Origin: a virus
Lineage: Duplodnaviria; Caudoviricetes
Length of the DNA: 56,290 nt
Strand: one strand, 5' to 3'
IMG/VR virus record: IMGVR_UViG_3300020469_003527
Coordinates: 1 to 56,290 of that record
Of this stretch, positions 2,147-37,718 are shown piece after piece. The translations under genes and the position numbers were made by a program. Positions within the stretch are counted from its first letter, which is position 1; every line of letters begins with the position of its first letter. The notes under the pieces were generated by a model. That model ran no database searches. It was not told where the DNA came from and saw nothing but the letters and a program-made list of their open reading frames with translations.

Positions 2147-2168
2147 ATCGCCGCCTTTCTATTAATAA

Positions 2169-4264: not shown

Positions 4265-4331
4265 TTTACCAAAGGGCTACTAAAAATACAAGTGCTATAG
4301 ACATTAAAAATATATAAAGATAAATTTTCAT

Positions 4332-23295: not shown

Positions 23296-23967
23296 TTATT
23301 CTTTAACTAGTGGGAAGACATTAGCAATCACTTCAGCACACGCTTTTGCTAATTCCATATGTTCTTTTTGTGTTCCATTTCCACATCTAACATCTAAATA
23401 ATGCACCCATGACCTAATTGTTCCATTAACGTATAACCTTGATATTGTCAGGCCTTCAGGCAATACTGCTCTTGCTTGTTCCTTTGCTATGTTATTATCT
23501 ATTGCCCACTTGTAGGCATCTCTCGCATGATTTAAAACTACTTCTTGTTTTAACTTCCACTTCATTTGTAAATTTATATCGTTTATAGTTAAACTGTTTT
23601 GTCTATTCTTGGCGTCCTGAAGTCTGGCCTCTCTAAGTACAAAATCGAGTTCCTCAGTTGGGTTGGCATATCTTTGGCTAAATTCCTGAAAGCTAAAACT
23701 TCTGTGTCTGAGTAATTGTCTGGCAATGTCTCTTGTTGTTTCGATTTCAAGGCACGCTGAGACCATTTCAAGCGGCGACCAGTGTTTGTGTTTGATGAGG
23801 TATTTGATGAGTCTTTCAGATGTTTCGGTATTCGTTTGATTGGTGGGATTGCTGACCCTGGCACAAAACGCAATAAGTTCTGAAAGAAGTTTGGATTTGT
23901 CGAAATTGTATCTATCATTATATTCCTCATGTGGTTGTGTATATGAAACTAATTTAACTTTCAACAA
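23296..23967 (-). CDS. thyX: Flavin-dependent thymidylate synthase
   Basis: HWSPLE, RHRSFSFQEFSQRY, KEQARAVLP, TQKEH. Confidence 0.97.
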   Translation of the reverse strand: MLKVKLVSYTQPHEEYNDRYNFDKSKLLSELIAFCARVSNPTNQTNTETSERLIKYLIKHKHWSPLEMVSACLEIETTRDIARQLLRHRSFSFQEFSQRYANPTEELDFVLREARLQDAKNRQNSLTINDINLQMKWKLKQEVVLNHARDAYKWAIDNNIAKEQARAVLPEGLTISRLYVNGTIRSWVHYLDVRCGNGTQKEHMELAKACAEVIANVFPLVKE

Positions 23968-24986
23968 TTACTCTCCCATCTTTGAAATTCTAGCAAACCT
24001 CTAGGAGAAGAAAACGTGTTTTTATTTATTATATCAATAATTTCTTTTTTTGTTCTATTCTGCATAATCATTTCATTTATATCTTTTTCTACAATAGATT
24101 TAGGCCAAATGCATATTTTTATATTTCCTAAAAGTGACCATCTCATTTGACCTCGTATATTAGCATTTCTACGCTCATTATCGTAAATAAGAACTAACTT
24201 TTCTTTTGGTAAATGATTTATCGCACTTTTCAAATTTGCATTTCCAACAGCAATAGAGTTATCTAAAAACATACTATCAAAACAGCCTTCAGTTACATAG
24301 ATTGTTTCATCTTTGTTAATCTTATTCAAATTGAAAAGCATAGGAGAATTATCTTTAATTCTCACTACTATATATCTTAGTAAGAGTTTCTCTCCTCTAA
24401 TCGCTCTTGCAGTAACACCCACTAAATTTTCATTTTCATCATAAAAAGGAAACACTATTCTAGGCTCATTTGTATGAATCTTACCTTTGTAATCGTCAGA
24501 TAACTGTGAAAGTTTAGAGGCATCATCTACAAAAAATAAAGAGTCAATCTTATCTTGAGGAATTTTTCTAAGTTTCAAATATACAATAGCTTCATGGTCT
24601 TCTGGTAGTTTAGACATCGGAAATAAAACTTTATTGTAGGTATCTTTAGAATCAAATCTAACAGGCTTGAATGTATAGTTATATTTCTTATGAGGCTTCA
24701 CTCCTATTTCTCCAGATTTATATCTGTCTACGCAGTATTTTCTATATAAAATAGGGTCTAAAAATTTTATAAGATTGCCAAAAGACATACTTGCTTGACA
24801 ATTATGACATTTATAGAAAAATGCATTTTTCCTCTCAAACAAATATCCTCTAGCTTTATTCTTGTGTTTTTTACTGTCGCCACAGATAGGGCAACGAAAA
24901 TTATATAAGCAGTTTGATTTTCTTTTAAATTTATCTAATCTAAAAGCAATATCGTGAACATACTGTCTATCTAAAATCGCACTCAT
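23961..24986 (-). CDS. 61: DNA primase, gp61
   Basis: RCPICGDS...KCHNC zinc finger, TEGCFDS Toprim, KDINEM. Confidence 0.95.
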   Translation of the reverse strand: MSAILDRQYVHDIAFRLDKFKRKSNCLYNFRCPICGDSKKHKNKARGYLFERKNAFFYKCHNCQASMSFGNLIKFLDPILYRKYCVDRYKSGEIGVKPHKKYNYTFKPVRFDSKDTYNKVLFPMSKLPEDHEAIVYLKLRKIPQDKIDSLFFVDDASKLSQLSDDYKGKIHTNEPRIVFPFYDENENLVGVTARAIRGEKLLLRYIVVRIKDNSPMLFNLNKINKDETIYVTEGCFDSMFLDNSIAVGNANLKSAINHLPKEKLVLIYDNERRNANIRGQMRWSLLGNIKICIWPKSIVEKDINEMIMQNRTKKEIIDIINKNTFSSPRGLLEFQRWESNC

Positions 24987-25011: not shown

Positions 25012-25041
25012 ATTCTACTAGATATTATAGATGTCTGTCAA
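25012..25041 (-). promoter_or_regulatory. Putative sigma70-type promoter for primase-thyX-nrd operon
   Basis: Minus strand TTGACA-N18-TAGAAT. Confidence 0.5.
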
Positions 25042-25460
25042 ATGTATTTTTGTGCCATACTAATTAAATATCCAAATAATATAGCACCGCCAACTACCAT
25101 CCACTTCCATTTTTCAAGTTCTGAAACTCTACTAACTAGTGCTTTTTTCATCTCTTTCATTTCGTCCATTCCACAAGTATGAGCCTGTCTAATTTCTTTT
25201 CTCAACTCATCTTTATTATCTTCTGTAATTTTTCTATAATCTTCAAATTTCTGAAAAAGTACATCAATTAAAGACTGTAACTGTTTGTCTGTATTATCTT
25301 GTTTTTCTAGTTTAGCTTCGTGTACGGCAACTATCTTTGATAAGTTTGTAGAAACCTCTCCTAACTTATCAATTGTAGTGTCTAACTTTGTGAATATACT
25401 TGAAATTTGACTTACGTCCCTTTTCAACAGTTCTAAGTCTGTTTTTAAATCATCTGACAT
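25038..25460 (-). CDS. Coiled-coil protein with C-terminal TM, possible lysis accessory
   Basis: LEKWKWMVVGG ending; follows spanins. Confidence 0.6.
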   Translation of the reverse strand: MSDDLKTDLELLKRDVSQISSIFTKLDTTIDKLGEVSTNLSKIVAVHEAKLEKQDNTDKQLQSLIDVLFQKFEDYRKITEDNKDELRKEIRQAHTCGMDEMKEMKKALVSRVSELEKWKWMVVGGAILFGYLISMAQKYI

Positions 25461-25464
25461 TTCC

Positions 25465-25758
25465 CTATTCCTTGATAGTTTCTATAAGTTTATCGTGTCT
25501 AATTGCACATTCATTATATTGAACCATCAAGTCTGTAGTATATCGAATCAAATCTCCCATATTAGATTCTTGAGATATTGAATCTATAGCATCACATCTA
25601 GTAGCTAAGTTTTGAGGCACTTTAGCAGTCTTCATATTAGGAGCGTATGCTTTTTGAACTGGCATCATACCACAACCAGTTATTCCTAAAAAAAATCCTA
25701 TTAGTATTAACACCCAAAAAAACTTAACTAGTATATTTCTTTGTTTTTCTTTATTCAT
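25465..25758 (-). CDS. o-spanin-like lipoprotein (Rz1-like)
   Basis: Lipobox ITGC; P.NLATRC; YNECAIRH. Confidence 0.75.
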   Translation of the reverse strand: MNKEKQRNILVKFFWVLILIGFFLGITGCGMMPVQKAYAPNMKTAKVPQNLATRCDAIDSISQESNMGDLIRYTTDLMVQYNECAIRHDKLIETIKE

Positions 25759-26210
25759 TGTTTTCTAAACTTCTTCAAATATTCTTTAGGTCTGAGTATA
25801 TTTATCTTTCTATCTTTGTTCATATCTTTCGCTTTCTCATTTAAAACATCAAAATCCAAAGTTTCTAATCCTCTATCAAAGTTTAACTCTTCTATAGTAT
25901 TTCTAACTAAATTTATACCTGAAGGTGGAATTACACATTGTTTATATACTGTTTTTTCTACTTCTTTTTCAACAGTCTTATAAATGACTTTAACTTTTCT
26001 TTTTTGTGTTTTTAATTTTTCTTCATATTCCATTGATATCAAGGCTCGTCTTTCTTCCTCTTTATCTAATTCAAGTTCATATTCTGCGGCAAGGTTTGCT
26101 CTAGCTTCTGCCTCTAAAGCGGAATTGAATTTCCAACCAGCACCAAAAGACCCTACTATCATTATTCCAAATAGTATTGCTTTCCAATGTGTAATTAAAA
26201 ATAACATCAA
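25755..26210 (-). CDS. i-spanin (Rz-like)
   Basis: N-terminal TM ending GAGWK, coiled coil, VYKQCVIP; overlaps lipoprotein gene. Confidence 0.75.
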   Translation of the reverse strand: MMLFLITHWKAILFGIMIVGSFGAGWKFNSALEAEARANLAAEYELELDKEEERRALISMEYEEKLKTQKRKVKVIYKTVEKEVEKTVYKQCVIPPSGINLVRNTIEELNFDRGLETLDFDVLNEKAKDMNKDRKINILRPKEYLKKFRKQ

Positions 26211-26368: not shown

Positions 26369-28240
26369 CTAAACTTTAAGTTTTAAATCTCTAGTCATGA
26401 AGTTTTTCTTTCTCATAACAGTTTTAGCAATTAAATCTAACTCTTTTGTTCTTCTATTTAAATTTAGAACGAACGGCATATTTATATCTGTTTTCATATC
26501 ATTTACAACAGCTTCAGCATCATCTCCTAAAGATGCTATTTTTTTTCCATATTTCTCATATGTTTTTTTAAACAAACTTGCAAGTTCTTGAATAGTTATA
26601 TCTTTTTTATTTCGCATATCATTAACTCTATCTAGAAAATGTCTAGTAAATTCTATATCAATACCTACAGCTTTGAAAAGCCTATCAGCGTAAGATTCAA
26701 CTTTATCTAAATCTGACCTAGTAATGTCTTCTGTTACTTGTTCTTTTACTTGTTTTTTAGAATGATATGAGATTTCGGGGTCAGCATCTCCAGACTCATC
26801 TGGCCACCAATTGACACTAAATTTTTTCCCCATGTTAAATATCTTACTCATATCTAATATTCTTTTTTCATATTCTTTTTTGCTCGGCTTTACTCTACCA
26901 GCAACAACATCTAGAACATAGTTTAATGTTACTGCGTTTGCTGTGAGAGAACCACATCTTGCACCTGCTTCACCTTTTAAATAATCTATCATTATAGATT
27001 CACTACTTTTAGCCATATCTTCTGCAAATTCATGAGGAACTTTTACATCAACATAACAGTATACAAAATCGTAATGAGGAGCAGGAGACCCGTGCAATAT
27101 ATATTCATCTCTTACTACTATTCTTTTAAATCCATCTTTGTTGTGCCAAACTACTTGTTTGTTTGTAAGTTCGTCTGGTTTTCCAAAAGTCTTTGTTAAG
27201 TGTTGTGCAAATTTTACAGGCTGTTCATGTTCCCATTGACTATATAATGAATTGTCTTCATTCATTTTTTTAGTCTTCTTTTTCATAGAATTTATAAATT
27301 TTCTGTAAATAGAAGAAGCGGCAACTTTACCCATAACTTTTGCTCTTTGCTCCATAGCTATTGCGGCTTGTATTTTATGAGCGTGAGTTCTTCCACTAGA
27401 TTTTATTTTTTTCACGCTATCTTCAGCATCTTCTTTAGTAGCAAATTTCAATCCTTTTATTGTTCCTTTAGGATTTTCGTCTGTATATAAGTCTGAGTGT
27501 TTATCTGAGTTAGCTGGTTGTCCTTTTTTTTTAGGGATTCTAGGATTTGATTCTTCAAATATACTACTTCTTCCATATCTTAGAAAAATCATACCTCCAG
27601 TTTTTTCGTCTTGAAGTATAATAGGTTTTTTAGGATATTTTAGACCATACTCTCTTATCGCTAATCCAATTTCATCATTACCTACATATTTTTCATATCT
27701 CACATATTTCTTTTTTCCTAGTCTAGCTTTTTTCATTAAGTCGCTAGAAACTACAAAAGTAGTTGTGTTAGCAAATTTACCTCTTCTTATCAGTTTATTT
27801 TGTGCTTTTTTACCTACTGGAGGATCATCACCTAAACCTGCAACTTGACCAGAACCAGCCACATTTGCAATTTCTTCATTTTTATATTTCTCTGACCACT
27901 TTTCAGTTAGGTATCTTTTTTTGTAAAAATCTAAAAATTTTTCTTTAATATTTTCTTCTGTGAGAGTATCTTGCTCTCTTAAAAGAAGTAAAGCGGCGGC
28001 ATATGATGCAAGTTTTGTTTTTCCAAAAGGTATCGTGCCCAAAACATTTTTAAGTTTTAGCATTAAATTATCAAACTTTGTATAGGAATCTTTTTGCTCT
28101 TGACTTCTACTGCTACGTTTTACAATGATTTTACCATTTTTATCAATCACACCTGTTTTATATGCTTCCCAATTCTCATAAGGCGTTGTCAATATTCTTA
28201 GGATTCTGTATACAATGTAAAGGTCTACTAAATTTGCCAT
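26369..28240 (-). CDS. Modular 623-aa protein: T4-like 61.1-type N-domain plus several appended modules
   Basis: DLYIVYRILRILTTP..WEAYKTGVID N-terminus; module junctions at LTE, NEE, FEE, MNE, VTE. Confidence 0.7.
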   Translation of the reverse strand: MANLVDLYIVYRILRILTTPYENWEAYKTGVIDKNGKIIVKRSSRSQEQKDSYTKFDNLMLKLKNVLGTIPFGKTKLASYAAALLLLREQDTLTEENIKEKFLDFYKKRYLTEKWSEKYKNEEIANVAGSGQVAGLGDDPPVGKKAQNKLIRRGKFANTTTFVVSSDLMKKARLGKKKYVRYEKYVGNDEIGLAIREYGLKYPKKPIILQDEKTGGMIFLRYGRSSIFEESNPRIPKKKGQPANSDKHSDLYTDENPKGTIKGLKFATKEDAEDSVKKIKSSGRTHAHKIQAAIAMEQRAKVMGKVAASSIYRKFINSMKKKTKKMNEDNSLYSQWEHEQPVKFAQHLTKTFGKPDELTNKQVVWHNKDGFKRIVVRDEYILHGSPAPHYDFVYCYVDVKVPHEFAEDMAKSSESIMIDYLKGEAGARCGSLTANAVTLNYVLDVVAGRVKPSKKEYEKRILDMSKIFNMGKKFSVNWWPDESGDADPEISYHSKKQVKEQVTEDITRSDLDKVESYADRLFKAVGIDIEFTRHFLDRVNDMRNKKDITIQELASLFKKTYEKYGKKIASLGDDAEAVVNDMKTDINMPFVLNLNRRTKELDLIAKTVMRKKNFMTRDLKLKV

Positions 28241-28597
28241 CTATATTTTTTTCCTTAACCTTTTTAGTAATTCTTCATCATACTCTACATCATCATTCTC
28301 AATATATTTTAAGTGTATCAAAAAAGAGTTAATTACTGCTTTACTTTTTTTGTCAACTTTGTGATTTAAAATAGATGCCGTGGCTTCTACTCCGAAAACA
28401 TTAGAAAGTAATATTATATGATTTAATATCAATCTTTCTTTTAGTTCTCCTTTGTCAGAATATTTGTTTAGTAGTCTTTTTATGTATTGTATTTTTTTTA
28501 AATCATCTAAAAATTCAAGAATCGAAACACAGTTAGGATTCTTATAACTACTTACAACATATTCTTCAAAATTTTCATCACTTAATTTAACAATCAT
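28241..28597 (-). CDS. Conserved T4-like hypothetical protein
   Basis: Y.NPNC..EFLDDLK, LKERLILNHII..NVFG. Confidence 0.7.
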   Translation of the reverse strand: MIVKLSDENFEEYVVSSYKNPNCVSILEFLDDLKKIQYIKRLLNKYSDKGELKERLILNHIILLSNVFGVEATASILNHKVDKKSKAVINSFLIHLKYIENDDVEYDEELLKRLRKKI

Positions 28598-29134
28598 TTA
28601 AAATGTACTTAAACTTGCCCTCAATATTGCTGAAGAATTTACCGCTACATAAATGTAATTAGTGTCCCAAGTAATTGTTCCTACTCCTAAACCTATACTT
28701 GAATTGTCTCCATTTGCAGGCGTTTGTGCTGTTCTAACACGAATAGAATTAGAATTTATATCTAACGCTGAAGTAGGAGCATTTGTTCTTATTCCTACTC
28801 TATCATTACCAGCATCAACATATATCATATTTTCATCATTATTTGATTCTACTCTTGTATCAGAATCTCCACCATCTTCATTTACAACCATTCCAGTTTG
28901 AACCATCATTAAGTTTGATGTATCTACTGTTAGATATGAAGATGCTATAGTTGAATTTCCTGTAGCACCAAAGTCCATAGTAGAAAAACTTGTTTGTGAA
29001 GTTGCTCCAAAAATATCTTCTAGTTCTATTTTTTTACTTACAGGAGTTCCACCTGGATCATCAATAACTAACAGCACATCGGTGTTAGCGACTGCTGTTA
29101 GTTGCGAAAGTTGAGTTACTTTTTTATCTGCCAT
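28598..29134 (-). CDS. Putative virion structural / short fibre protein
   Basis: MADKKVTQL start, RVGIRTNAP, ITWDTNYIYVAV fibre-type motifs. Confidence 0.6.
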   Translation of the reverse strand: MADKKVTQLSQLTAVANTDVLLVIDDPGGTPVSKKIELEDIFGATSQTSFSTMDFGATGNSTIASSYLTVDTSNLMMVQTGMVVNEDGGDSDTRVESNNDENMIYVDAGNDRVGIRTNAPTSALDINSNSIRVRTAQTPANGDNSSIGLGVGTITWDTNYIYVAVNSSAILRASLSTF

Positions 29135-29205
29135 TTATTTCTCCTATTCTATAAACCGAATTTAATCGGAATGCTAATCCTGGGATTCAGGCCACTAAAT
29201 TAAAA

Positions 29206-29682
29206 TTAAGAATCTTCTAATACTGCATCATCTTCAGCATCGCCAGATACGTTAAGAACGCACAAAGGCTCTACTTTATATCTAGTTGTTCCATGCATGT
29301 CGCTATAACTTACATACCTGTTCCAACCTGGAGTGTTTAGTCCTCTACCAATATTGTTAGAGACAACTGCTTCTGCATCTGATACTCCATATATATTATT
29401 TGCGGCTACGTCTGCTCCTGTAACAAATTTTGGTGCAGGTTGAATAGACACAGCATGACCTGACAGATTAATTCCGTCATACGCTGTATCGACCACAAGT
29501 GCTGTAGCATTCGTAACTGATTCTACTTGCCTTCTTTCTGCTCCTAAAAGCATGACATCTTTAACTTCTACATTTGAACTTAAAGCCGTGCCACTACCAA
29601 TTACAATTGTAGGATTTGCTGAATTACTAACTGAAACTGTTCCTAATCCTGCAACTTTATCTGCTGTTCCCCAAAGTGCCAT
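29206..29682 (-). CDS. Putative virion structural protein
   Basis: MALWG start, IYGVS, PGW, R.KVE.L; Ala/Val/Gly-rich; own late-type promoter. Confidence 0.6.
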   Translation of the reverse strand: MALWGTADKVAGLGTVSVSNSANPTIVIGSGTALSSNVEVKDVMLLGAERRQVESVTNATALVVDTAYDGINLSGHAVSIQPAPKFVTGADVAANNIYGVSDAEAVVSNNIGRGLNTPGWNRYVSYSDMHGTTRYKVEPLCVLNVSGDAEDDAVLEDS

Positions 29683-29713
29683 TTTTCTTTCTCCTTATTG
29701 TTTTTATTTTTAC

Positions 29714-29721
29714 TATTTATC
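29714..29721 (-). promoter_or_regulatory. Putative late promoter
   Basis: Minus strand GATAAATA about 30 nt before ATG 29682 with AAGGAG SD. Confidence 0.5.
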
Positions 29722-30139
29722 TATTATCAGTTTTTAACTCAGGTTGTAAATTTATGGGTTCTTTTTTACCGCTTAATTTATCTCCATTTTTCACGGTTTT
29801 TTCTGTTTTAATTCCGTCAACTCTATTTTTCAGTCTATCGACAACTTTCTTCTGCGACCTCAATTTTCTTGCCAAACGCAGTTTTGCCGCCGCTTTTTTA
29901 ACCGCATCTTCATCAAGTTCAACTTCTTCTTTTAATTTTCTAAACTCTCTTTCTGTCATCTTTTTCATGTTTATTTCCATAACTCCTAGTTCATATCTTA
30001 AAGACCTAAGTTTAGTTTTTTTGAAACCATAGTAGTCTTCGGCAGGTTGAGGTTTTGTAATTTTTTTAGTGATGTTTTTCTTTGCCTTTTCAAACATAAC
30101 ATCTAACTGTTTAAAATAAGAATTTAAGTCGAAATCCAT
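29717..30139 (-). CDS. Lys-rich putative internal head protein
   Basis: Contains KEEVELDE linker. Confidence 0.65.
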   Translation of the reverse strand: MDFDLNSYFKQLDVMFEKAKKNITKKITKPQPAEDYYGFKKTKLRSLRYELGVMEINMKKMTEREFRKLKEEVELDEDAVKKAAAKLRLARKLRSQKKVVDRLKNRVDGIKTEKTVKNGDKLSGKKEPINLQPELKTDNR

Positions 30140-33100
30140 TTTTAATCCTTTTTAGCCATTTTAGTAGCGACTGCATACATAACTTGTTTGCCTTTACCAG
30201 GATATCTCTTTTCAAAATCTGCCGCTTTGTCTTTTAAAGACATTACTATTTTTTCTTTTTTATTTTCTTCTCCTGGTGTAAGAGTTCTTTCAGATTTAGT
30301 CTTTCCGCTATCCATTTTATTCAAGTGCTTTTTAATTCTATCAGATTGACCTTTGTGCATTTTTGAAGCACCATCTAATTCACCAGCCATTTTTTCTAAA
30401 TCTAAATCATCTTTTACAATTCTTTTTTTCGCTCTATCAAGACCTGCAAATCTTTTAGATGTATTTACTGTTCCTGTAGAATGTTGTTTCTTCGCAATAT
30501 CTTTCATAGATTTTTTTGCATAACTTTTTGCTAAGTCTTTAGATATCTCGTCTATTTCTTTTTCTTCACAACCAGGTTTTACTTTTTTACGTTGTAAAGG
30601 AGTATTTCCCATATGTTTGTAATGATCAGGTTGACTTCCACGAACTCCAAGATTTACCTCAGTCTGTAAATCGCCTTTAGTTGCTAATTGCAAATCTAAT
30701 ATCTCTCCTTTTTTCCCTGACAATTCAATACCATTAGGAGTATCTTTTACTTTCAAACCAACTTGTTTTGCTAAAGCAATATACGATTGCTTTTGTTTAT
30801 TCGTTTTAAAACCTTTGATGACTCCTTTAGCTTCTTCTAAGTCTACTTCTTCTTTGAGTTTTTTAATTTGAGCATCAGAAAATTTAAATTTAGTTTTCAA
30901 AACTTTTTCTGCATCAGAAACAGACATTCCTCCTAGTAAAGCCTTTTTAGGATTCTTGACAGTATCAATTGCAATTTTCTTTTGATGTTTTTCTCCAACA
31001 CCTTCGTCAAATTTTATCACTTCTTTTACTTGAACACTTTCTACTTGGCCTCTGATTTTCAACAAGTCTGGAGCCTTATACTTATGTTTCATAATAAGTA
31101 TTCCTGATGCCTTAGTAGATACAAAAGGAACATCTGCTTTATATAATTTTTCTAATGCTTTTTTATTGCCTGAAATTGGGTCTAATATCTTATCTAATTT
31201 TTTTAAATTATCAAGACTTACTCTCTTTCCTCTAAGAGGTTCATATTTTTTTTGTAGCAACTTCATTTGAGCATCAGAGAACATTTCATCTACTTGTTCA
31301 ACCTCTTCAGCCCTACCAAGTTGTCTATTCATACTAAGTCTACCTTTAGCTTTGTCAATAGCTAAATCTCTTTTGTTGATTTTACTAGGAGAAGATGCAA
31401 TATCTTTAGAATGATAGTCTGCAACTCTCTTTGATAAATCTTTACCTGCTTTGCTTATATAACTCTTTAGCGTTTTTGATTTAAGTTCATCTACTTGTTC
31501 AGCTTCATCAACTTTAACTGCAAAATGTTGTTTAGTTCTTCCTATTCCTTTAATAAATTTGCCACCAACTTCTTTTGCTTTTTTACGAGCCTCAGCTTCG
31601 GTATCATATAGAAAAAGTTTTCCTTTCTTTTTTGCCTCATCAAGGTCAACTTCTTCTTTGAAGACATAGAATACACGACCAACTTTTCTTACACGACCGC
31701 CCATTTTTTTAGCAAAATTATCTGCTTGTGTTTTATTAGCAAATGTCTTGTCATATACTTCTTTACCCATAACCTTTGCCTCATCAAATTCGACTTCTTC
31801 TTTAAAACTCATTCCCATTTCTTTTCTGAGAGCCTGTATTTCTTTTTGAATTTTCTTTTGTGCAGGTGAATTAGGAACGGCTTTCAATGCTTTATTACCA
31901 AGTTTAAGAAGTTGTACTCTTTGTTCTGGTGTTCCTTTACCTCCAAAATGTTTGTCACTATCGTAGGCGTATTTTTTCCCACGAAAATTGCTTTTAGCTT
32001 CATCAAGTTCAACTTCTTCGTGTTTAGCTTTGTGCATAGTATCTAATTTATTGAAGAATTTTTTCTTTTCTTCAGGCGACAAGTCTCTCAAAGATTTTAT
32101 TCCCATCTTTGCCATGAGGCCTTTTACTTTTTCTTGATAGTCTTCAGAAACTTTTCTACTTGCTTCTATGATACTATCTGTTAATCCGAAATTACTTTTT
32201 GAAAACACGTTTATTCTCCTTAGTCTAAGTCTGAAACTGATTTGCCTTTTTCCCACATTTTACAAGACCAATACTTTGCTTTCCATTTAGGTCCTGGATC
32301 TGTATCGCAACCATGTCTTGCTCTAAAACTTTTTCTTCTTTCTGGGTCATCTCTTTTAATTTCCATATTTGGGTCACCAAAATTAACTTTTACAACTTTA
32401 CCTTTCGGACCCATTGTATATACAGAAAACTTTTTAGGACCTCCAGATGTTCTGAAAGGGTCGTTTAGTTTTACTTTTTTTCCTTGATATTCTGCTTCAG
32501 TTATTTCTTCTTCTTCCTCATATATCTTTTTCGCTCTTTGAGTACGAATATCATTTAACACGTTTAATACTGTATCTGCTGAATATTTTGCAGTTACTAA
32601 ATCAGGATTCTGCCCTGGTGTTTCTCTAGCGTAAGCGATTCTAGAAGCATCAGTTCCTAATTCTACTCGTTCATCAAGTTCCAGTTCTTCTTTCTTACTA
32701 CCTCTTACTTTATCAGCTAAGTCTTTATCAGCTTTGCCCCATGTTCCTTTGCCTTTTGTTATAAAAGAATTAACTCTTGCAAAAGCCCATTGCTGTTGAG
32801 ATGCTCCAGGTCTATGACCTCCTTTCCAAGCGGCCATTCCTCTATTGTAAACTTGTTTTAAAATACTGTAAGATATACCTGATTTTTCAGCTTTTTTAAC
32901 TAGACCTGCAATTTTAGATTCATTCATAATATTATGAAATTCTTGGTCAAACTTCTCTTCTTCAAGCATTTCTTCATAAATTGCTTCGACTTCTTCTTCT
33001 AGTTCGTAATCAAGTTCTAATTCTTCTAAACTTTCTCCAATATCGTCAGAGTTGTTTAAACCTTCAAACTCTAAATAATCTCTTACTGACTCTATATAAT

Positions 33101-33745
33101 CAGTAGCTTTAGCTATTTTTGAAAGAACCCATTGCTCAGGCTCCTCTTGCATATTCATAAACATCTCTTGCAAATCTTCTACATCTTGTTCTAAATTAGC
33201 AAGTTCAATTCTTGCCATACTTATACCATCAGTTGCAACTCCTTCATTGTAGTCTTCAGAAACCATCTTTGCTAGAATTCTAGCATCTACGTTAAAATAT
33301 TTTTTTGCAATTGCGGCGGCAGAAGATATAATAGCACTTTTAGGTTTTTTCTTTACTAAATCTTTTAATTCTTTTTGTGCTGATTTATACTGTGCTTTAT
33401 GAATTAAAGGACTTAATTTTTTAGTTATTCCAAAAGGATCTTCTTCTAATTTAGCTTCTTCTGTATACATGTTAAGTTCATATCTTTTATTATCAAGATT
33501 TGTAACTTGCACTTGAACTGCTTTTTTACCAGTCTTATCTAATAATCTGTAAGCATTCGCTTTACCTGAAGAAGGTCTTTTAGGTCCTGTCGCAACTTTT
33601 CTATCAATGTCTCTAGGATCAATTTCAATTTTATATTTCTTTTTCGCAAAATCATAAGCATGTTGCATAGCTGAAGAAAAATCTTTATGATAAAGTTCGT
33701 AACCTGTTCCAGATTTAGCCTCATCGACTTCAACTTCTTCTTTAG
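29908..33745. repeat. Dispersed linker-coding repeat family
   Basis: cttcatcaagttcaacttcttc exact at 29908-29929 and 31998-32019; variants near 30835, 31636, 31780, 32670, 33721; ttcatctacttgttca at 31285-31300 and 31486-31501. Confidence 0.75.
30142..32208 (-). CDS. Lys-rich modular putative internal head polyprotein (688 aa)
   Basis: Start reassigned to GTG 32208 behind AGGAG; at least 8 EEVxLDE-type linkers separate 40-100 aa basic modules. Confidence 0.75.
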   Translation of the reverse strand: MFSKSNFGLTDSIIEASRKVSEDYQEKVKGLMAKMGIKSLRDLSPEEKKKFFNKLDTMHKAKHEEVELDEAKSNFRGKKYAYDSDKHFGGKGTPEQRVQLLKLGNKALKAVPNSPAQKKIQKEIQALRKEMGMSFKEEVEFDEAKVMGKEVYDKTFANKTQADNFAKKMGGRVRKVGRVFYVFKEEVDLDEAKKKGKLFLYDTEAEARKKAKEVGGKFIKGIGRTKQHFAVKVDEAEQVDELKSKTLKSYISKAGKDLSKRVADYHSKDIASSPSKINKRDLAIDKAKGRLSMNRQLGRAEEVEQVDEMFSDAQMKLLQKKYEPLRGKRVSLDNLKKLDKILDPISGNKKALEKLYKADVPFVSTKASGILIMKHKYKAPDLLKIRGQVESVQVKEVIKFDEGVGEKHQKKIAIDTVKNPKKALLGGMSVSDAEKVLKTKFKFSDAQIKKLKEEVDLEEAKGVIKGFKTNKQKQSYIALAKQVGLKVKDTPNGIELSGKKGEILDLQLATKGDLQTEVNLGVRGSQPDHYKHMGNTPLQRKKVKPGCEEKEIDEISKDLAKSYAKKSMKDIAKKQHSTGTVNTSKRFAGLDRAKKRIVKDDLDLEKMAGELDGASKMHKGQSDRIKKHLNKMDSGKTKSERTLTPGEENKKEKIVMSLKDKAADFEKRYPGKGKQVMYAVATKMAKKD

Positions 33746-34235
33746 GAACACAATTAGGCACCATTCTATTACCTTTCTTTTTCATTCCTTTTTGTACATG
33801 AGTGTCCCAGCAAGGGTCATCTTCTTGTATTTTTCCTTTATGCTTTTCATATCCTTGTTTTGCTTGTCTTTTACGGTCTGAATGTTTACCAGCACCAGAT
33901 TTAGGAGCATTCAAATGAACTAAATTTCTTTGTTTGATTTCTTTCGTTTTTTGTTCTCCATACATTTGTTTATACTTTTCAGTATGCTTTGACGTTTTTA
34001 CTTTCCCCTTTTCTCTAGCCTTTTTATCTCCAGGAGCATCTTTGTATGCACTAGCATCTGAATCAGACTTATCGTTCTGTCTGTCGAAATGAGAAGCCCT
34101 AGAGACTTTCTTGTCTTTTGAAAGACCTTTGTAATACTTTTTAGGTTGAGAGCCGTCTCTCTTAGAGACATGAGGATCTTGCTCTAACTCTGTTTTTTCT
34201 AAAAGAAAATCTGTATATTTTTTAAATAACATCAT
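32220..34235 (-). CDS. Modular putative internal head polyprotein (671 aa)
   Basis: N-terminus MLFKKYTDFLLE resembles T4 capsid-targeting sequence; linkers EEVEVDE, AKLEE, EELELDE, EEITE. Confidence 0.75.
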   Translation of the reverse strand: MMLFKKYTDFLLEKTELEQDPHVSKRDGSQPKKYYKGLSKDKKVSRASHFDRQNDKSDSDASAYKDAPGDKKAREKGKVKTSKHTEKYKQMYGEQKTKEIKQRNLVHLNAPKSGAGKHSDRKRQAKQGYEKHKGKIQEDDPCWDTHVQKGMKKKGNRMVPNCVPKEEVEVDEAKSGTGYELYHKDFSSAMQHAYDFAKKKYKIEIDPRDIDRKVATGPKRPSSGKANAYRLLDKTGKKAVQVQVTNLDNKRYELNMYTEEAKLEEDPFGITKKLSPLIHKAQYKSAQKELKDLVKKKPKSAIISSAAAIAKKYFNVDARILAKMVSEDYNEGVATDGISMARIELANLEQDVEDLQEMFMNMQEEPEQWVLSKIAKATDYIESVRDYLEFEGLNNSDDIGESLEELELDYELEEEVEAIYEEMLEEEKFDQEFHNIMNESKIAGLVKKAEKSGISYSILKQVYNRGMAAWKGGHRPGASQQQWAFARVNSFITKGKGTWGKADKDLADKVRGSKKEELELDERVELGTDASRIAYARETPGQNPDLVTAKYSADTVLNVLNDIRTQRAKKIYEEEEEITEAEYQGKKVKLNDPFRTSGGPKKFSVYTMGPKGKVVKVNFGDPNMEIKRDDPERRKSFRARHGCDTDPGPKWKAKYWSCKMWEKGKSVSDLD

Positions 34236-35092
34236 GCCTCTGATTCCTCTTTGTATATGTAATTTTTAAACTTATCTAGATTATTCTGAACAAAAGTAGG
34301 GTAACTTAAGTACGCTGACTCTACTAATATAGGTTCATAATCTGAATACAATCTTTCTACTGCTTCTTCTTTTGTATCAAAATCAAACTTAGTTTTCTTA
34401 TTTGCATAAACATCTTTAGAATGTGCCCAACTCTTTTGTTTTAATAATACGTTTTCTCCATCTGTACCATCTAAAAATGTGTAATGCCAACCTGCATTTT
34501 GAATATACTTATCACCTAAATTCATTTGTCTAATAACTGCTGGAGATAACTCCTTTAGTTTTTTAAAAGTTGTCATACAACCTGCGGCCGTAACATTTGT
34601 TTTGTGGAGTAAATTTAATTTATAAACATACAAATCTGTATTAAATCTAACTATTTCATCTTTTCCACAAAACTGTGTAGCTTCTGTAATACTTTTTTCT
34701 TTTAGTATTTCATCTACACAATGACCTAAAACTAAATCATTATCACTAGCTTTTAAATAATCTAATATTATACAAACATAATTCACTTGAAACGCTTCTC
34801 TTTTCCAATCATCAATATTCTGATGAGACTGAACTACTTCTTCTAAAACTTTGACGTTGAAAAAATTAGGAAACTTTTTCATTTCTTCCTCAAAGTTATT
34901 TATTCTTATGTAAATGATTTTATCTTCATACTTTTTAAATCTATCTACATCAAAATTAAAAGACTTTTTTAATCCTGTGTGTGTTTGGCCTGCTTCACAC
35001 ACTATAAACTTATCAACTACATTCCAATGAGCATTTAATTTAACTTCAAATAAATCATTCTCATTCAAAAACATACAATAATCATAAATCAA
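34232..35092 (-). CDS. Glycosyltransferase family 17-like
   Basis: MFLNENDL, VVDKFIVCEA..THTG, HCVDEI, AGWHYTF. Confidence 0.8.
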   Translation of the reverse strand: MIYDYCMFLNENDLFEVKLNAHWNVVDKFIVCEAGQTHTGLKKSFNFDVDRFKKYEDKIIYIRINNFEEEMKKFPNFFNVKVLEEVVQSHQNIDDWKREAFQVNYVCIILDYLKASDNDLVLGHCVDEILKEKSITEATQFCGKDEIVRFNTDLYVYKLNLLHKTNVTAAGCMTTFKKLKELSPAVIRQMNLGDKYIQNAGWHYTFLDGTDGENVLLKQKSWAHSKDVYANKKTKFDFDTKEEAVERLYSDYEPILVESAYLSYPTFVQNNLDKFKNYIYKEESEA

Positions 35093-35095
35093 TTT

Positions 35096-35419
35096 TTATC
35101 TCCTAGATAATTCTTTCTTTCTAACTGTAGGCATTAGTCTTGTTGCTAGTTTCTTTACTGCACCTTTAAACTTACCTAATCTTCTATCGATTTGCATCTT
35201 TGCAGATGTTCCTAACTGGGCATATGATTTACCTCCTGCAAGTCTTTTTTTAAAGAAACCTCTTGCAGTTCTAGTTGCTCTTTTACTTAATCGACTTCTA
35301 TCTGCAAATCTTTTCATTTGTAGAGTTCTTGCTCTTTGTACTCTTTTTTGAAGTCTCTTAAATCTCATTGCTCTTTGTCTTCTTTGAGCCATGTCTAATA
35401 CTTCGTTTTGATTTTCCAT
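35096..35419 (-). CDS. Arg-rich putative prohead core protein
   Basis: QNEVLDMAQRRQRA...; very basic helix; late cluster. Confidence 0.55.
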   Translation of the reverse strand: MENQNEVLDMAQRRQRAMRFKRLQKRVQRARTLQMKRFADRSRLSKRATRTARGFFKKRLAGGKSYAQLGTSAKMQIDRRLGKFKGAVKKLATRLMPTVRKKELSRR

Positions 35420-35420
35420 A

Positions 35421-35774
35421 TTAGTACTCGCTAGAATCGTAAGCCGCAGTTTTTCTCAAGTGTAAAACTGTCGTATACTTGTGAGAACCACTTGTGGGAG
35501 TAATTTTTATGGGAGAAGTAGAGTTTGCACTATCAACCCAAGAATCATATTTGAAAGACCCTGTGCCTGCTAAATTATATAAAAGAGTGTTACCACGAAA
35601 TAATTGAACAATATTTGTGGTGCCTTCATTAGAATAGTGAATTTCTTTTATGTGATATTCTGTAGGTGTCACAGTATCTTTTGTACTATCAGCAAAGGCT
35701 ACGTTTGCCGTAGACTCTGAGGTAATTCTGACAACTACCTCAGTATCAGTATTTTTGAGAACATCTTTTGACAT
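35421..35774 (-). CDS. Late hypothetical protein (beta-rich)
   Basis: First gene after TATAAATA; AGGAG SD. Confidence 0.6.
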   Translation of the reverse strand: MSKDVLKNTDTEVVVRITSESTANVAFADSTKDTVTPTEYHIKEIHYSNEGTTNIVQLFRGNTLLYNLAGTGSFKYDSWVDSANSTSPIKITPTSGSHKYTTVLHLRKTAAYDSSEY

Positions 35775-35780
35775 TAAAAT

Positions 35781-35817
35781 CTCCTATATTGTTCGTTTTT
35801 CTATAGGAGTATTTATA
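35781..35817 (-). promoter_or_regulatory. T4 late promoter plus SD-sequestering hairpin
   Basis: TATAAATA 35817-35810, then CTCCTATA (35809-35802) complementary to TATAGGAG (35788-35781). Confidence 0.85.
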
Positions 35818-35982: not shown

Positions 35983-36354
35983 TTAAGGTCTGTTTTGTTT
36001 TGGGAATGGAAATTGGACTACGTTTTTCACTTCGTCCTCTATTTCGTGTGATTGCAAGTTCTCCTCGTCAAAATCAAATTTAAATTGTAAGTCGTTCATT
36101 TCGTCTTCATTCATAACTAAAGATGTTTCTGTTGCACCTGAACCTGAATCGTATATAGAAGTTTCCTTTACGTTTTCATACAAATCGTAAGTTTCACGAA
36201 CCTCATTATCTAAATTAACAGTTGTAGTGTAAATTGATTGGCTCCAATCTCTAGGGCATTCTATTCTATCAACTACTTTCTCAAGTTCTTTAATTGATTT
36301 TTTTAATCCGTTTAATGTAATTTTTAAGTCATCTAAATTTCTTTCGTTTATCAT
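35983..36354 (-). CDS. Acidic hypothetical protein
   Basis: ATGA overlap with gene 41; ends NVVQFP. Confidence 0.55.
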   Translation of the reverse strand: MINERNLDDLKITLNGLKKSIKELEKVVDRIECPRDWSQSIYTTTVNLDNEVRETYDLYENVKETSIYDSGSGATETSLVMNEDEMNDLQFKFDFDEENLQSHEIEDEVKNVVQFPFPKQNRP

Positions 36355-37718
36355 ACCTTAAACCCCTTAAATTTATTTTCTTTAGTTTCAGGTTGACCGC
36401 TGTCAGATACATCATTTTGAGCAGTCTGCTCTACATCATAAATTCTCATCTTAGGCTTATCTATACCCACAATAAATCTTTTATTTTTGTTTGGGTCACT
36501 ATATCTATTCTTTAGTTGCTTTATTAGAATTTGATTTAATTCTGACAACTGTTCACTAGATATTATTGCAAACATAAAATCAGCAGTAGCAGGTAATCCA
36601 AAAGATTCTGACGTATCTTCTAATCCTACATCAGTATTTGTATATCCTGACCTTGTAGATTGTGTAGCTGATATTATAGGAACGCTATATTCAACTGCTA
36701 ATCCTCTCAACTCTTCTGCGATAGCTTTAACATATGTATATGAGTTGACGTTTGTGCCAGGCTTTATTCTTGAAGAAGTGCATATGTTTATGTAATCAAT
36801 GTAAATGATGTCTGGAACAAATTGTTTTTTTAATCTCAATTCATCTAATAATCTTTTGAAATGTAGTGGGTTTGCTGTCGCTGTAGGATATTCTTTAATA
36901 ATCAATTTACCAGCAGTCTTCTCTCGTATTCTTTCTATCTTTTTCATGTAAGAATCTTTAGGTAATGCTACTAAATCATCTAACTTAACATTCATCAAGT
37001 TTGCATCAACTCTTTCGGCGATTCTCTCTTCAGACATTTCTAAGGTAATATATAAAACATTTTTACCCATAGCCATATTAGCAGAGGCACAATGACACAT
37101 AAACAAAGATTTACCTACGCCTGTACCTGCAAGTATTACGTTTAAAGATTTTTCAGGCACTCCTCCTTTTGTTATCTTATTTAACATTTCAATATCAAAA
37201 GGAACTTTCTTTTCAACTAAATGATAATATTCATGTCGCTGTTCAGCATCTTCTACAAGGTCATGACCTATGTGATTATCAAAAGATACTGCTAGTGCAT
37301 CAGTTAATATTTTAGGAATAGCACCTAAATCTAAGTGATTTCTATCTTTATCATTTTCATCTACTATTTGAATACTCTGCATTAAACCATTGTATATTGC
37401 TTTTTGTTTACAAAACTTTTCAGTTGTATCTATTAACCAATCTGAATCTTGAATATCAGAATTTGTAGTAACTTCTTTTACAAGAGTTTGAGTTTCTTTA
37501 TGTAAATTTTCAGATAAAGATGAATTTTTATCAATTTGTATTAAAAGAGATTCTTTAGTAGGTCTAGATTTATATTCATGAATATGTTTATAAATTTCAT
37601 CAAATAAAGTTATCTCAGCAGTTTCGCTGAAATATTCTTTTTTAAGAAAAGGCAAAACTGTGCGGGTATATTCTCCGTCAAAAATTAAATGTTTTAATAT
37701 TTTATGTTCTAGTTTCAT
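36351..37718 (-). CDS. 41: Replicative helicase gp41
   Basis: AGTGVGKS, ITLEM, IDY, ATQSTR, SESFGLP, KNRY. Confidence 0.97.
   Translation of the reverse strand: MKLEHKILKHLIFDGEYTRTVLPFLKKEYFSETAEITLFDEIYKHIHEYKSRPTKESLLIQIDKNSSLSENLHKETQTLVKEVTTNSDIQDSDWLIDTTEKFCKQKAIYNGLMQSIQIVDENDKDRNHLDLGAIPKILTDALAVSFDNHIGHDLVEDAEQRHEYYHLVEKKVPFDIEMLNKITKGGVPEKSLNVILAGTGVGKSLFMCHCASANMAMGKNVLYITLEMSEERIAERVDANLMNVKLDDLVALPKDSYMKKIERIREKTAGKLIIKEYPTATANPLHFKRLLDELRLKKQFVPDIIYIDYINICTSSRIKPGTNVNSYTYVKAIAEELRGLAVEYSVPIISATQSTRSGYTNTDVGLEDTSESFGLPATADFMFAIISSEQLSELNQILIKQLKNRYSDPNKNKRFIVGIDKPKMRIYDVEQTAQNDVSDSGQPETKENKFKGFKV

Follow-up and report, generated by a model that had tools for sequence, protein, structure and literature searches.

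A modular gene cluster with prohead-protease-like joints in an uncultured marine T4-like phage, read as head-targeted polyproteins

The gene cluster described here is best read as a late-transcribed set of head-targeted cargo or core polyproteins, and it seems probable that these are cut by the prohead protease of a marine T4-like myophage. The long ORFs encode chains of small, independently folding modules, mostly Lys-rich, and the joint between modules is a short acidic peptide ending in hydrophobic-x-Glu (h-x-E), typically EEVE-L-D-E and then Ala. This repeated linker fits the T4-type head-protease rule, so the proteins probably enter the head and are divided into their modules inside it. 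We infer the targeting, the cleavage and the fate of the pieces, which might stay with the DNA and be injected or might leave the head.

Organization of the cluster

The window, that is the whole stretch of DNA analysed, comprises 56,290 nt of an uncultured marine T4 relative, and the cluster is read on its minus strand (Table 1). The four ORFs of 623, 140, 671 and 688 aa that the initial annotation placed here are real and lie on that strand. The 688-aa protein is part of a 704-aa frame at 30142-32256 (minus strand), and probably starts at the GTG at 32208, which follows AAGGAG by 8 nt, in agreement with the library gene call (P0001). The cluster is located amid replication genes, between helicase and primase genes and outside the head module, and neither structural genes nor a gp21 head protease gene were found in the window contig. 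The 117-aa ORF has no family match in Pfam or PHROG, while phrog_23027, a PHROG profile of 602 residues, holds both the module of the 107-aa protein and the C-terminal module of the 623-aa protein.

An exact TATAAATA late promoter had also been described. The motif is present and heads the cluster, but it falls outside the span that had been given for the cluster, and its count across the window (7 versus 12.4 expected) is not above chance. It also stands 35 nt ahead of the homologous ORF in L002, a 144-kb close relative, and a late-promoter motif lies directly ahead of family ORFs in five related loci. Downstream, no terminator-like site was seen on the minus strand as far as 25500.

Table 1. 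Positions of genes, late-promoter-like motif and joints in the window (arrow, candidate cleavage position)
Feature	Position	Strand	Remarks
TATAAATA, T4-type late-promoter-like motif	35810..35817	-	35 nt 5' of ATG of the 117-aa ORF heading the cluster
117-aa ORF, first gene of unit	35421..35774	-	conserved in L002
107-aa Arg/Lys-rich protein, pI 12.0	35096..35419	-	phrog_23027, E 2.5e-12, profile positions 223-328
286-aa glycosyltransferase family 17-like protein	34232..35092	-	PF04724, E 1.6e-15; within cluster, not a mosaic-family member
671-aa mosaic protein	32220..34235	-	leader MMLFKKYTDFLLE, then at least 5 pieces including DUF5824 and C-terminal module
DFLLE, end of N-terminal leader, 671-aa protein	34197..34211	-	
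EEVEVDE↓A, 671-aa protein	33720..33740	-	L002 DNA homology break at 33739/33743
EEAKLEE↓D, 671-aa protein	33441..33461	-	L002 homology break at 33439/33422
EELELDE↓R, 671-aa protein	32670..32690	-	
EEEEITE↓A, ahead of 671-aa C-terminal module	32496..32516	-	same joint in relatives: LEE↓A, MME↓S, ITE↓K
688-aa mosaic protein, 9 modules	30142..32208	-	GTG start behind AAGGAG
EEVELDE↓A, after module A, 688-aa protein	31999..32019	-	module and linker also in gp67-like L015 ORF
EEVEFDE↓A, 688-aa protein	31780..31800	-	L002 break at 31789; pLDDT <50 at residues 137-149
EEVDLDE↓A, 688-aa protein	31636..31656	-	
EAEQVDE↓L, 688-aa protein	31486..31506	-	
EEVEQVDE↓M, 688-aa protein	31285..31308	-	10-residue blocks 291-310: mean pLDDT 54 and 51
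KEVIKFDE↓G, 688-aa protein	31003..31026	-	pLDDT <50 at residues 389-399
EEVDLEE↓A, 688-aa protein	30832..30852	-	
EEKEIDE↓I, 688-aa protein	30547..30567	-	L002 homology break at 30549
140-aa two-module protein	29717..30139	-	L002 homolog 301 aa
EEVELDE↓D, 140-aa protein	29909..29929	-	aligns with both linkers flanking the L002 insert (overlap 29910-29933)
158-aa protein	29206..29682	-	phrog_613 'head protein', E 1e-14; BLASTP vs SSCSM1_95, E 9.5e-7
178-aa protein, start MADKKVTQLSQL	28598..29134	-	HTVC008M counterpart at equivalent relative position
118-aa DUF7207 protein	28241..28597	-	PF23837, E 2.5e-30
623-aa mosaic protein	26369..28240	-	conserved N-terminal module, two middle modules absent from L002, C-terminal module
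Plain h-x-E joints, 623-aa protein	IFE 27551-27562, MNE 27257-27268, VTE 26729-26740	-	

Linkers and modules

All of the linkers named in the initial annotation were recovered in the 671-, 688- and 140-aa ORFs. When a strict pattern, EE[VL][ED][LFVI][DE]E, was searched in all six-frame segments of at least 90 aa in the window, 7 of 7 matches fell in these three adjacent ORFs, compared with a mean of 0.001 in residue shuffles of the three proteins, where none of 5000 reached 7. A looser pattern (acidic context plus h-[DE]-E) gave 13 matches versus 0.59 expected. The weaker junctions described for the 623-aa protein (IFE, MNE, VTE, LTE) are present as plain h-x-E without the acidic run, and the proposed total of about 25 pieces is plausible, the present estimate being roughly 22-25. 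The linker copies vary at synonymous positions (GTT/GTC/GTA, CTT/TTA), and so it is the peptide that is conserved, not only the DNA.

Lysine makes up 19.2% of the 688-aa protein and 20.0% of the 140-aa protein, compared with 8.6% in 15 other large proteins of the window, and most pieces are basic (pI 9.3-10). The description of the blocks as Lys-rich and basic holds for this enrichment, but not for every piece, since two stretches of the 671-aa protein, residues 266-522 and 523-580, have a pI of 4.9 and 4.7, respectively.

An AlphaFold2 model of the 688-aa protein (mean pLDDT 74.9, pTM 0.28) shows confidently predicted modules with dips at or beside most linkers, although at some linkers the prediction is an unbroken helix and not a loop (H45-76, H236-269). 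A single continuous fold across the linkers would have spoken against the polyprotein proposal; the low pTM and the separate modules of the model instead support a beads-on-a-string arrangement with no predicted global fold.

Fit to the head-protease rule

Cleavage by the T4 protease takes place C-terminal to Glu (PMC5694885). In T4, gp23 loses 65 residues, the internal proteins lose short peptides from their N-termini, and gp22, gp67 and gp68 are degraded to small peptides (PMC9958956). T4 IPII and IPIII begin MKTYQEFIAE↓A, and T4 gp23 has FLTE↓A at residue 65. Among 103 distinct junctions collected ahead of six anchor modules, which are related sequences and not independent events, h-x-E occurs in all 103, compared with 19.8% of random 11-aa windows. 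The P3 residue is L in 62, I in 16, V in 12, M in 10 and F in 3, P2 is free (D 56, E 19, others 28), and P1' is mostly Ala or Gly (A 48, G 22). In the L002 gp23, LLE↓A aligns with the T4 capsid-protein site LTE↓A, and LLDE↓A or LIDE↓A is found at the same site in more distant relatives. The L002 contig encodes a Peptidase_S77 (E 1.5e-38), this head protease being seen there and not in the window. By their sequence, the joints fit the hydrophobic-x-Glu rule of T4 gp21.

Module shuffling and spread of the family

The comparison of module order across relatives, which had been suggested as a check, revealed modules that were lost, swapped or moved, with breakpoints in the linker codons. L002 has the same flanks as the window, about 90-94% identical, and within the cluster modules have been deleted, replaced or moved. 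Alignment by blastn breaks inside the linkers at 33720-33740, 33441-33461, 31780-31800, 30547-30567 and 29909-29929; the module at 33743-33439 sits in another gene in L002 at 89.8% identity, which is the level of the flanks; and the L002 homolog of the 140-aa protein is longer by two modules, inserted at the linker. When 155 family proteins were compared all against all by BLASTP, 12.0% of the alignment ends fell no more than 6 aa from a strict linker, versus 3.0% for random positions. The linkers behave as module joints, at which cassettes are shuffled.

The module family is large and mosaic, with 1015 library proteins matching at E<=0.001. The C-terminal module of the 671-aa protein is a stand-alone gene in many marine phages, other modules of this protein are common to the 'cytidyltransferase' fusion proteins of HTVC008M and Melnitz, and the HSDLYTDENP module of the 623-aa protein forms an ORF of its own in L069 (105 aa, leader MKTFKQYIEA). 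One module exists as stand-alone copies in podoviruses and archaeal spindle-shaped viruses, which indicates that the modules as such are not confined to phages with T4-type heads. DNA-binding or anti-defence roles had been proposed for the delivered pieces; no module matched PDB or a defence-related family in the sequence and fold searches run, and the 688-aa protein had no match to a head protein in Pfam, PHROG or PDB and none to phrog_1064.

Leaders, prohead genes and virions

A T4-like leader, M-x-x-[FY]-...-E10, is found in 22 of 137 family proteins (consensus M[ST]RYR[KQ]TMxEA), and cluster genes of relatives begin MKTYRKFINEA, MKKFSEIIEA or MKTFKQYIEA. The exact leader spacing of T4 occurs in 0 of 65 ORFs of the window. 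The 671-aa leader KKYTDFLLE resembles the T4 KTYQEFIAE and starts 3 residues later, the N-terminal SIIE↓A of the 688-aa protein has D in place of E in some relatives (SLIDA, SLVDA), and no clear leader was seen in the 623-aa and 140-aa proteins.

The module family is linked genomically to prohead genes. In other T4-like contigs module A, the first of the 688-aa protein, is part of a fusion with a gp67-like prohead core protein; the same linker follows it, and the head protease gene comes immediately downstream. Relatives of module A end no more than 15 nt from the start of gp21 in 9 of 15 loci examined. ORFs of L015 and L059 match phrog_1064 'prohead' (E 1.4e-5 and 1.5e-3, respectively), and the L015 ORF, whose contig also has a gp21 homolog, is 50% identical to residues 23-71 of the 688-aa protein, linker included (E 1e-10).

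Homologous cluster proteins occur in virions of a cultured cyanophage, as shown by mass-spectrometry annotation. In S-SCSM1, genes 89-93 and 95 are annotated 'virion protein', and the paper on this phage lists 45 proteins identified in virions by mass spectrometry, among them the NMNAT of ORF91. ORF91, with MKSFLQFLKEA at its start, has matches to the family members P0018 and P0054, ORF92 belongs to the mosaic family and contains KEEVELDE↓R, and ORF95 matches the 158-aa protein of the window. NMNAT-like/cytidylyltransferase proteins have also been reported in virions of S-CBWM1, S-SZBM1 and S-CREM2, with a warning by authors of such proteomes that abundant non-structural proteins may co-purify with virions.

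Proposed mechanism and alternative explanations

The initial annotation held that the proteins are packaged in the prohead and cut there, for which the fit of the joints to the gp21 rule, the links to prohead genes, the S-SCSM1 virion annotation and the promoter now argue, and against which the window offers no head protease gene. Entry into the prohead core would be by a T4-like N-terminal leader or by the module shared with gp67-like core proteins; an active gp21-type prohead protease would cut after the Glu of each joint and free the modules inside the head; and the joint-coding DNA may act as a short homology patch for loss, gain and movement of cassettes between cluster genes. An unlikely alternative is that these are ordinary multi-domain proteins that stay uncut, whether virion-associated or cytoplasmic, with the joint as a spacer and its DNA as a recombination patch. 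A pure recombination role would also explain the breakpoints in linker DNA between close relatives, several linkers are predicted to be helical and continuous with the adjacent helices, and the S-SCSM1 mass spectrometry speaks to presence, not processing. Yet the linker peptide is kept despite synonymous-site variation, and across the 103 junctions only a hydrophobic P3, Glu at P1 and a small P1' are kept, with variation at P2 and in the upstream run, which is the signature of a recognition site and not of a spacer or DNA patch. Moreover, h-x-E also ends the leader when a module comes first in its gene, as in MKTFKQYIEA↓PRIP... of L069 versus ...IFEE↓SNPRIP... of the window.

It is rather improbable that the joints are cut but the pieces are extra scaffold or core, like T4 gp22, gp67 and gp68, and exit before DNA packaging with nothing delivered. 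The fusion of module A to gp67-like core proteins beside gp21 would suit such a role, the joints are acidic, as is the C-terminal half of T4 gp67, and T4 core proteins become small peptides that are thought to escape the head (PMC9958956). Most pieces, however, are basic like the T4 internal proteins, whose lysines contact DNA (PMC3012670); family members and the fused enzyme are reported from mature S-SCSM1 virions; and in relatives the same leaders precede enzymes, a nucleotidyltransferase among them, which would be odd for a disposable scaffold. Cutting outside the head, by a ClpP-like protease (17922-18521) or a host enzyme, to give small cytoplasmic proteins late in infection, is very improbable. 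The window does encode this Clp-family protease (PF00574, E 8.1e-9; phrog_1827, E 7.9e-59) and gp21 was not found in it, but the motif matches the Glu-specific S77 head-protease rule and the aligned capsid-protein maturation sites of relatives, the genomic links point to gp21, gp67 and virion proteins, and we know of no Glu-specific, h-x-E-directed Clp protease.

Comparison with known systems

A close parallel to the proposed head-targeted polyproteins is seen in T4 IPI, IPII, IPIII and Alt, which enter via a capsid targeting sequence and are trimmed by gp21. Like these, the family has a short N-terminal leader ending in hydrophobic-x-Glu-Ala (MKTYQEFIAE↓A in T4; M[ST]RYR[KQ]TMxEA, MKTYRKFINEA and MKSFLQFLKEA in the family), is basic and Lys-rich, may include an enzyme as cargo (cf. 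Alt), and is a highly variable set behind a conserved signal, as described for T4 (PMC3012670). No sequence similarity to the T4 internal proteins was found, the 671-aa leader of the window is offset by 3 residues, and whereas T4 internal proteins are single units with one cut near the N-terminus, up to 9 unrelated modules are chained here with a site at every joint. Multiple h-x-E sites per protein are also found in T4 gp22, and the fusion of module A and linker to a gp67-like N-terminus upstream of gp21 recalls gp67, gp68 and gp22, which gp21 degrades. Unlike these core proteins, the window proteins are encoded between helicase and primase genes and have folded, shuffled modules.

In head ejection proteins of the giant phages phiKZ, 201phi2-1 and SPN3US, cleavage likewise follows a Glu within a short motif, in some of them at several positions, but the motif is A/S/G-x-E, the cuts remove propeptides from single proteins, and the available part of that account describes no series of exchangeable cassettes (PMC5694885). 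The NMNAT/cytidylyltransferase core of cyanomyovirus virions is homologous to the HTVC008M 'cytidyltransferase' (35% identity, E 6e-38), an enzyme domain that the window 671-aa protein is without; the available parts of the papers on these virion enzymes make no mention of leaders, joints or processing. RNA-virus and retrovirus polyproteins likewise consist of a single translation product in which a short site recurs, and a viral protease acts on them during particle maturation. They share no kinship with the proteins described here, in which the accessory payload is reshuffled from one close relative to another and the candidate protease is an assemblin of the herpesvirus/T4 type.

Genomic setting of the cluster

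The record, 56.3 kb long with about 31% G+C, covers part of the genome of a T4-like marine myophage, and its minus strand codes for nearly all genes. Genes recognised by PHROG profiles include the gp43 polymerase, gp41 helicase, UvsX, gp61 primase, clamp and clamp loader, with further matches to RegA, NrdAB, Td, PhoH and CobS. Protein searches place the closest cultured relatives in the Kyanoviridae, namely Pelagibacter phage HTVC008M, Methylophilales phage Melnitz and cyanomyoviruses. The 9 kb of the cluster itself gave no match to cultured phages by megablast. On the minus strand, the cluster runs through a 117-aa ORF, a 107-aa Arg/Lys-rich ORF, a GT17-like glycosyltransferase, the 671-, 688- and 140-aa ORFs, 158- and 178-aa ORFs, a DUF7207 ORF and the 623-aa ORF. 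The glycosyltransferase and the DUF7207 protein are without leaders or joints (the short acidic linkers ending hydrophobic-x-Glu, h-x-E), and both are conserved in L002, the cluster locus of the 144-kb close relative G001. The 623-aa ORF is followed immediately downstream by a lysis-type trio, and elsewhere the window holds several metabolic genes and, between both ribonucleotide reductase genes, a gene for a Mom-like DNA modification protein.

Coordinates of the cluster flanks, associated genes and related loci
Feature	Sequence	Coordinates	Strand	Remarks
Helicase gene (gp41)	window	36351-37718		upstream flank of cluster
GT17-like glycosyltransferase	window	34232-35092	-	inside cluster
688-aa frame, start codon	window	32208	-	GTG behind AAGGAG
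DUF7207 protein	window	28241-28597	-	inside cluster
Lysis-type trio	window	25038-26210	-	Rz-like spanin (phrog_1152); 97-aa protein with lipobox-like LGITGCG; 140-aa protein with C-terminal hydrophobic stretch
Primase gene (gp61)	window	23961-24986		downstream flank of cluster
Mom-like DNA modification protein	window	20486-21262	-	phrog_1384, E 3.7e-39
Clp-family protease	window	17922-18521	-	PF00574 E 8.1e-9; phrog_1827 E 7.9e-59
Metabolic genes	window	383-4994; 15847-17043; 54650-55426	-	587-aa three-domain TPP enzyme, aminotransferase, GT34-like glycosyltransferase, D-2-hydroxyacid dehydrogenase, threonine-dehydratase-like protein
711-aa mosaic ORF	L060	7511-9646		directly upstream of gp21
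KWDG protein, ~410 aa	L062	3436-4662
KWDG protein, ~410 aa	L069	4293-5531
KWDG protein, ~410 aa	L007	2587-3813
KWDG protein, ~410 aa	L011	2001-3254
KWDG protein, ~410 aa	L041	231-1490
KWDG protein, HTVC008M copy	L001	2041-3273		different start

The cluster had been described in the initial annotation as lying downstream of an exact late promoter. A perfect TATAAATA does occur 35 nt ahead of the ORF that opens the cluster, but it falls outside the interval then assigned to the cluster and the motif shows no excess in the window (7 observed vs 12.4 expected). Across all loci its copies are divided between the strands without bias (104 vs 98), and its value as evidence is its placement before cluster genes only. 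Sigma-70-like sites in the window are likewise at chance level (42 vs 43).

Linkers and module composition

Every linker listed in the initial annotation is present in the sequence. A strict pattern, EE[VL][ED][LFVI][DE]E, has seven matches in the window, all within the 140-, 688- and 671-aa ORFs, and none of 5000 residue shuffles reached this number. All 13 listed linkers of these three proteins fit h-x-E, and in 7 of the 13 a small residue, Ala or Gly, comes next. Cutting at the listed joints would yield 9 + 5 + 2 pieces from the 688-, 671- and 140-aa proteins. The 688- and 140-aa proteins contain 19-20% lysine, compared with 8.6% in 15 other large proteins. Most of the pieces have a pI of 9.3-10, as expected from the earlier description of basic mini-modules, but the 671-aa protein also includes two acidic ones.

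Copies of the linker vary at synonymous codon positions, and a DNA-only repeat (a mobile element or homing site) was therefore rejected as the sole role of the linker. Internal translation starts after each joint were also rejected, since Met directly follows one linker only and relatives have F, G, A or K at that position.

Joints as recombination points

The joints are both module boundaries and recombination points. G001 shares genes on both flanks of the cluster with the window, in DNA blocks that are 89-97% identical, and a comparison of module order, as had been proposed, revealed that the L002 cluster differs by whole modules. In L002 the homolog of the 688-aa protein is 357 aa long, with window positions 31789-30549 absent and 200 nt of other sequence in their place, and the homolog of the 623-aa protein is without window positions 27523-26759. 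The module at 33743-33439, which belongs to the 671-aa protein in the window, is found at 11284-11588 of L002 within the homolog of the 140-aa protein (89.8% identity), and each of the two linkers bordering this insert aligns to the single window linker at 29909-29929. Between the window and L002, five breakpoints are inside linker codons and two are within ~30 nt of a plain h-x-E joint, while one indel pair is at weaker Y/F-G-E and I-Q-E sites.

The same organization extends to a large mosaic family. When the 704-aa frame, which holds the 688-aa protein, served as query in a full HMMER scan, 1015 proteins matched at E<=0.001 (182 at E<=1e-10). These proteins are 94-964 aa long, and each shares a single module or a few with the query, at scattered sites. 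Among 155 family proteins, the strict linker occurs at least once in 73 and at least twice in 41, and alignment ends fall within 6 aa of a strict linker in 12.0% of cases, compared with 3.0% of random positions. When the residues preceding each of six conserved modules were inspected, h-x-E was found within a few residues before the module at 103 of 103 distinct junctions, compared with 19.8% of random windows, a count that overstates the number of independent events because the junctions come from related sequences. At these junctions the third residue before the presumed cut (P3) is L, I, V, M or F, P2 is free, and P1', the residue after it, is mostly Ala or Gly.

DUF5824 (PF19141) covers residues 390-505 of the 671-aa protein (86.1 bits vs a gathering cut-off of 25, E 2.9e-24). 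No Pfam match was found for the 688/704-, 623- and 140-aa proteins, and the ESM Atlas returned only unnamed viral clusters with scores of at most 0.77. Residues 584-667 of the 671-aa protein, its C-terminal module (with RRKSFRARHGCD), also form a small gene of their own in podoviruses, in siphoviruses and in spindle-shaped viruses of archaea, for example in CRP-901, HTVC106P, Kolga and a Nitrosopumilaceae spindle-shaped virus.

Association with prohead core genes

At least one T4-like marker was present in the fetched stretch of 56 of 68 viral loci that encode relatives of the 704-aa frame. Family loci occur in two settings, either in the helicase-primase interval, as in the window, or adjoining the genes for the prohead protease gp21, the core protein gp22 and the capsid protein gp23. 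In 9 of the 15 examined loci, module A, the first module of the 688-aa protein, belongs to an ORF whose end is no more than 15 nt from the start of gp21; these ORFs range in size from 64 to 711 aa. Two module-A ORFs, in loci L015 and L059 on contigs shared with gp21, have N-termini matching phrog_1064 'prohead', the family of the core protein gp67 (E 1.4e-5 and 1.5e-3). Direct BLASTP of T4 gp67 against the L015 ORF was weak (E 0.15), so the link to gp67 rests on the PHROG profile and on gene position. Residues 58-107 of the same ORF are 50% identical to residues 23-71 of the 688-aa protein, KHE[ES]VELDEA included.

The 704-aa frame has no PHROG match at E<=0.01, and a gp67-like identity (phrog_1064) was accordingly not assigned to the 688-aa protein, whose gene lies between gp41 and gp61 rather than directly upstream of gp21. 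In locus L060, a 711-aa ORF directly upstream of gp21 has module A three times in tandem followed by further modules, from which it follows that the gp67/gp68 position can itself hold a long mosaic protein.

Leaders and fit to the T4 head protease

In the older literature the gp21 rule is worded as L/I-x-E. The T4 sequences of IPII, IPIII and gp23 agree with this rule, in that both internal proteins start MKTYQEFIAE, then A, and gp23 has FLTE, then A, at residue 65. According to PMC9958956, gp21 strips 65 residues off gp23 and short N-terminal peptides off IPI-III and Alt, and a second source places the cut of the T4 protease C-terminal to Glu (PMC5694885). The record is a fragment without structural genes and contains no Peptidase_S77 (gp21-type) gene; the head genes were therefore read from G001, which codes for a Peptidase_S77 (E 1.5e-38), a scaffold protein and a gp23 whose LLE-A aligns with LTE-A of T4 gp23. 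In more distant T4-like contigs with family members, gp23 has LLDE, LIDE or LIQE, then A, ~20 residues before the conserved LPLVRR.

Where a module comes first in its gene, the site that otherwise forms a joint ends a short leader, as in MKTFKQYIEA PRIP in locus L069, compared with IFEE SNPRIP in the 623-aa protein, and a nucleotidyltransferase is preceded by the leader MKTYRKFINEA, then KG. A leader with T4 spacing, defined by an aromatic residue at position 4 and Glu at position 10, was found in 22 of 137 family proteins (consensus M[ST]RYR[KQ]TMxEA) and in none of 65 window ORFs; the 671-aa protein has a leader-like KKYTDFLLE offset 3 residues further in than the T4 spacing. The leader is also seen in Melnitz cluster genes and in ORF91 of S-SCSM1, and most of the 'control' ORFs that carry it at T4 spacing are neighbouring genes within the same clusters, one example being a ligase-like protein starting MLSFKKIINEAK.

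In related clusters, a ~410-aa protein with a ligase-like KWDG motif bears a T4-like leader (MLSFKKIINEAK, MLTFKEFLLEDK). Because of this leader, the sequences suggest that a nucleotidyltransferase or ligase-like enzyme may also be head-targeted in some relatives.

Virion homologs, predicted structure and alternative readings

The cluster is probably a set of head-targeted polyproteins, in which a gp21-type protease would cut every joint and the DNA of the joint would double as a cassette-exchange site. This is the simplest account of the motif, the breakpoints, the family, the leaders, the prohead link, the virion homologs and the structural model. Genes 89-93 and 95 of Synechococcus phage S-SCSM1 carry the annotation 'virion protein' and include homologs of cluster and family proteins. 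ORF91, an NMNAT, has the N-terminus MKSFLQFLKEA and is similar to P0018 and P0054 of the family (E ~1e-59), and its enzyme core is homologous to an HTVC008M 'cytidyltransferase' that bears modules of the window 671-aa protein. ORF92 (520 aa) is a mosaic member with KEEVELDE, then R, ORF93 is a module also found adjoining gp21 in other contigs, and ORF95 matches the window 158-aa protein (E 9.5e-7). Virions of S-CBWM1, S-SZBM1 and S-CREM2 reportedly contain NMNAT-like or cytidylyltransferase proteins as well, and the authors of the virion proteomes warn that such proteins might co-purify with virions. The S-SCSM1 annotations are reported to come from mass spectrometry, which shows presence and not processing.

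Such data would also suit multi-domain proteins that stay uncut, a reading that we regard as unlikely. AlphaFold2, given 88 of 150 listed relatives (those of at most 460 aa), modelled the 688-aa protein with a mean pLDDT of 74.9 and a pTM of 0.28. Blocks with pLDDT >90 coincide with modules. Values below 50 are found in segments at or beside linkers 2, 6 and 8 and immediately following linker 1, and pLDDT also dips at linkers 3, 5 and 7; the model places linkers 1 and 4 within long helices. One continuous fold across the linkers had been named as an outcome that would speak against polyproteins, and in this model no single fold is predicted over the joints. A PDB sequence search with the three large proteins gave nothing at E<=1, Foldseek found no PDB match to the AlphaFold model at E<=0.001 and, in BFVD, a sole strong match to another mosaic protein, and no module function was obtained from these fold and sequence searches. 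Proteins cut at the joints and then expelled as core material would fit the occurrence of mosaic proteins beside gp21, since gp22, gp67 and gp68 are degraded by gp21 (PMC9958956); with homologs annotated in S-SCSM1 virions, we hold this to be distinctly unlikely. It is very improbable that another protease cuts the joints, such as the Clp-like enzyme encoded in the window amid replication and recombination genes. A T4-like phage is expected to own a gp21 head protease, which makes the Clp-family enzyme a second protease.

Significance

If the cuts proposed for head-targeted polyproteins are real, T4-like phages that infect the main bacteria of the ocean (SAR11, OM43 methylophiles, picocyanobacteria) would load dozens of small head proteins, supplied by a few polyprotein genes and reshuffled among close relatives, and the recurrence of NMNAT-type enzymes in cyanophage virion proteomes would be explained. 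The leader and the h-x-E joints would then serve as a rule to predict injected proteins from sequence alone, naming a large pool of candidate first-minute effectors. The polyprotein reading is directly testable in the cultured phages S-SCSM1, Melnitz and HTVC008M.

Previous work covers the targeting sequence, processing by gp21 and enzymes carried in virions. In the literature searched, no description was found of cassette polyproteins, in which interchangeable modules are strung together by a standard joint that can be cut. More tentatively, the joint may be a dual-use standard connector, a cut site in the protein and a recombination patch in the DNA, by which T4-like marine phages could use a single late gene, or a few, to assemble, swap and deliver a changing set of small effectors for injection. 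Should this doubtful but possible reading be true, such connectors would be a main origin of the small 'hypothetical' proteins entering the next host with the DNA, and the phage counterpart of polymorphic toxin and effector cassette systems.
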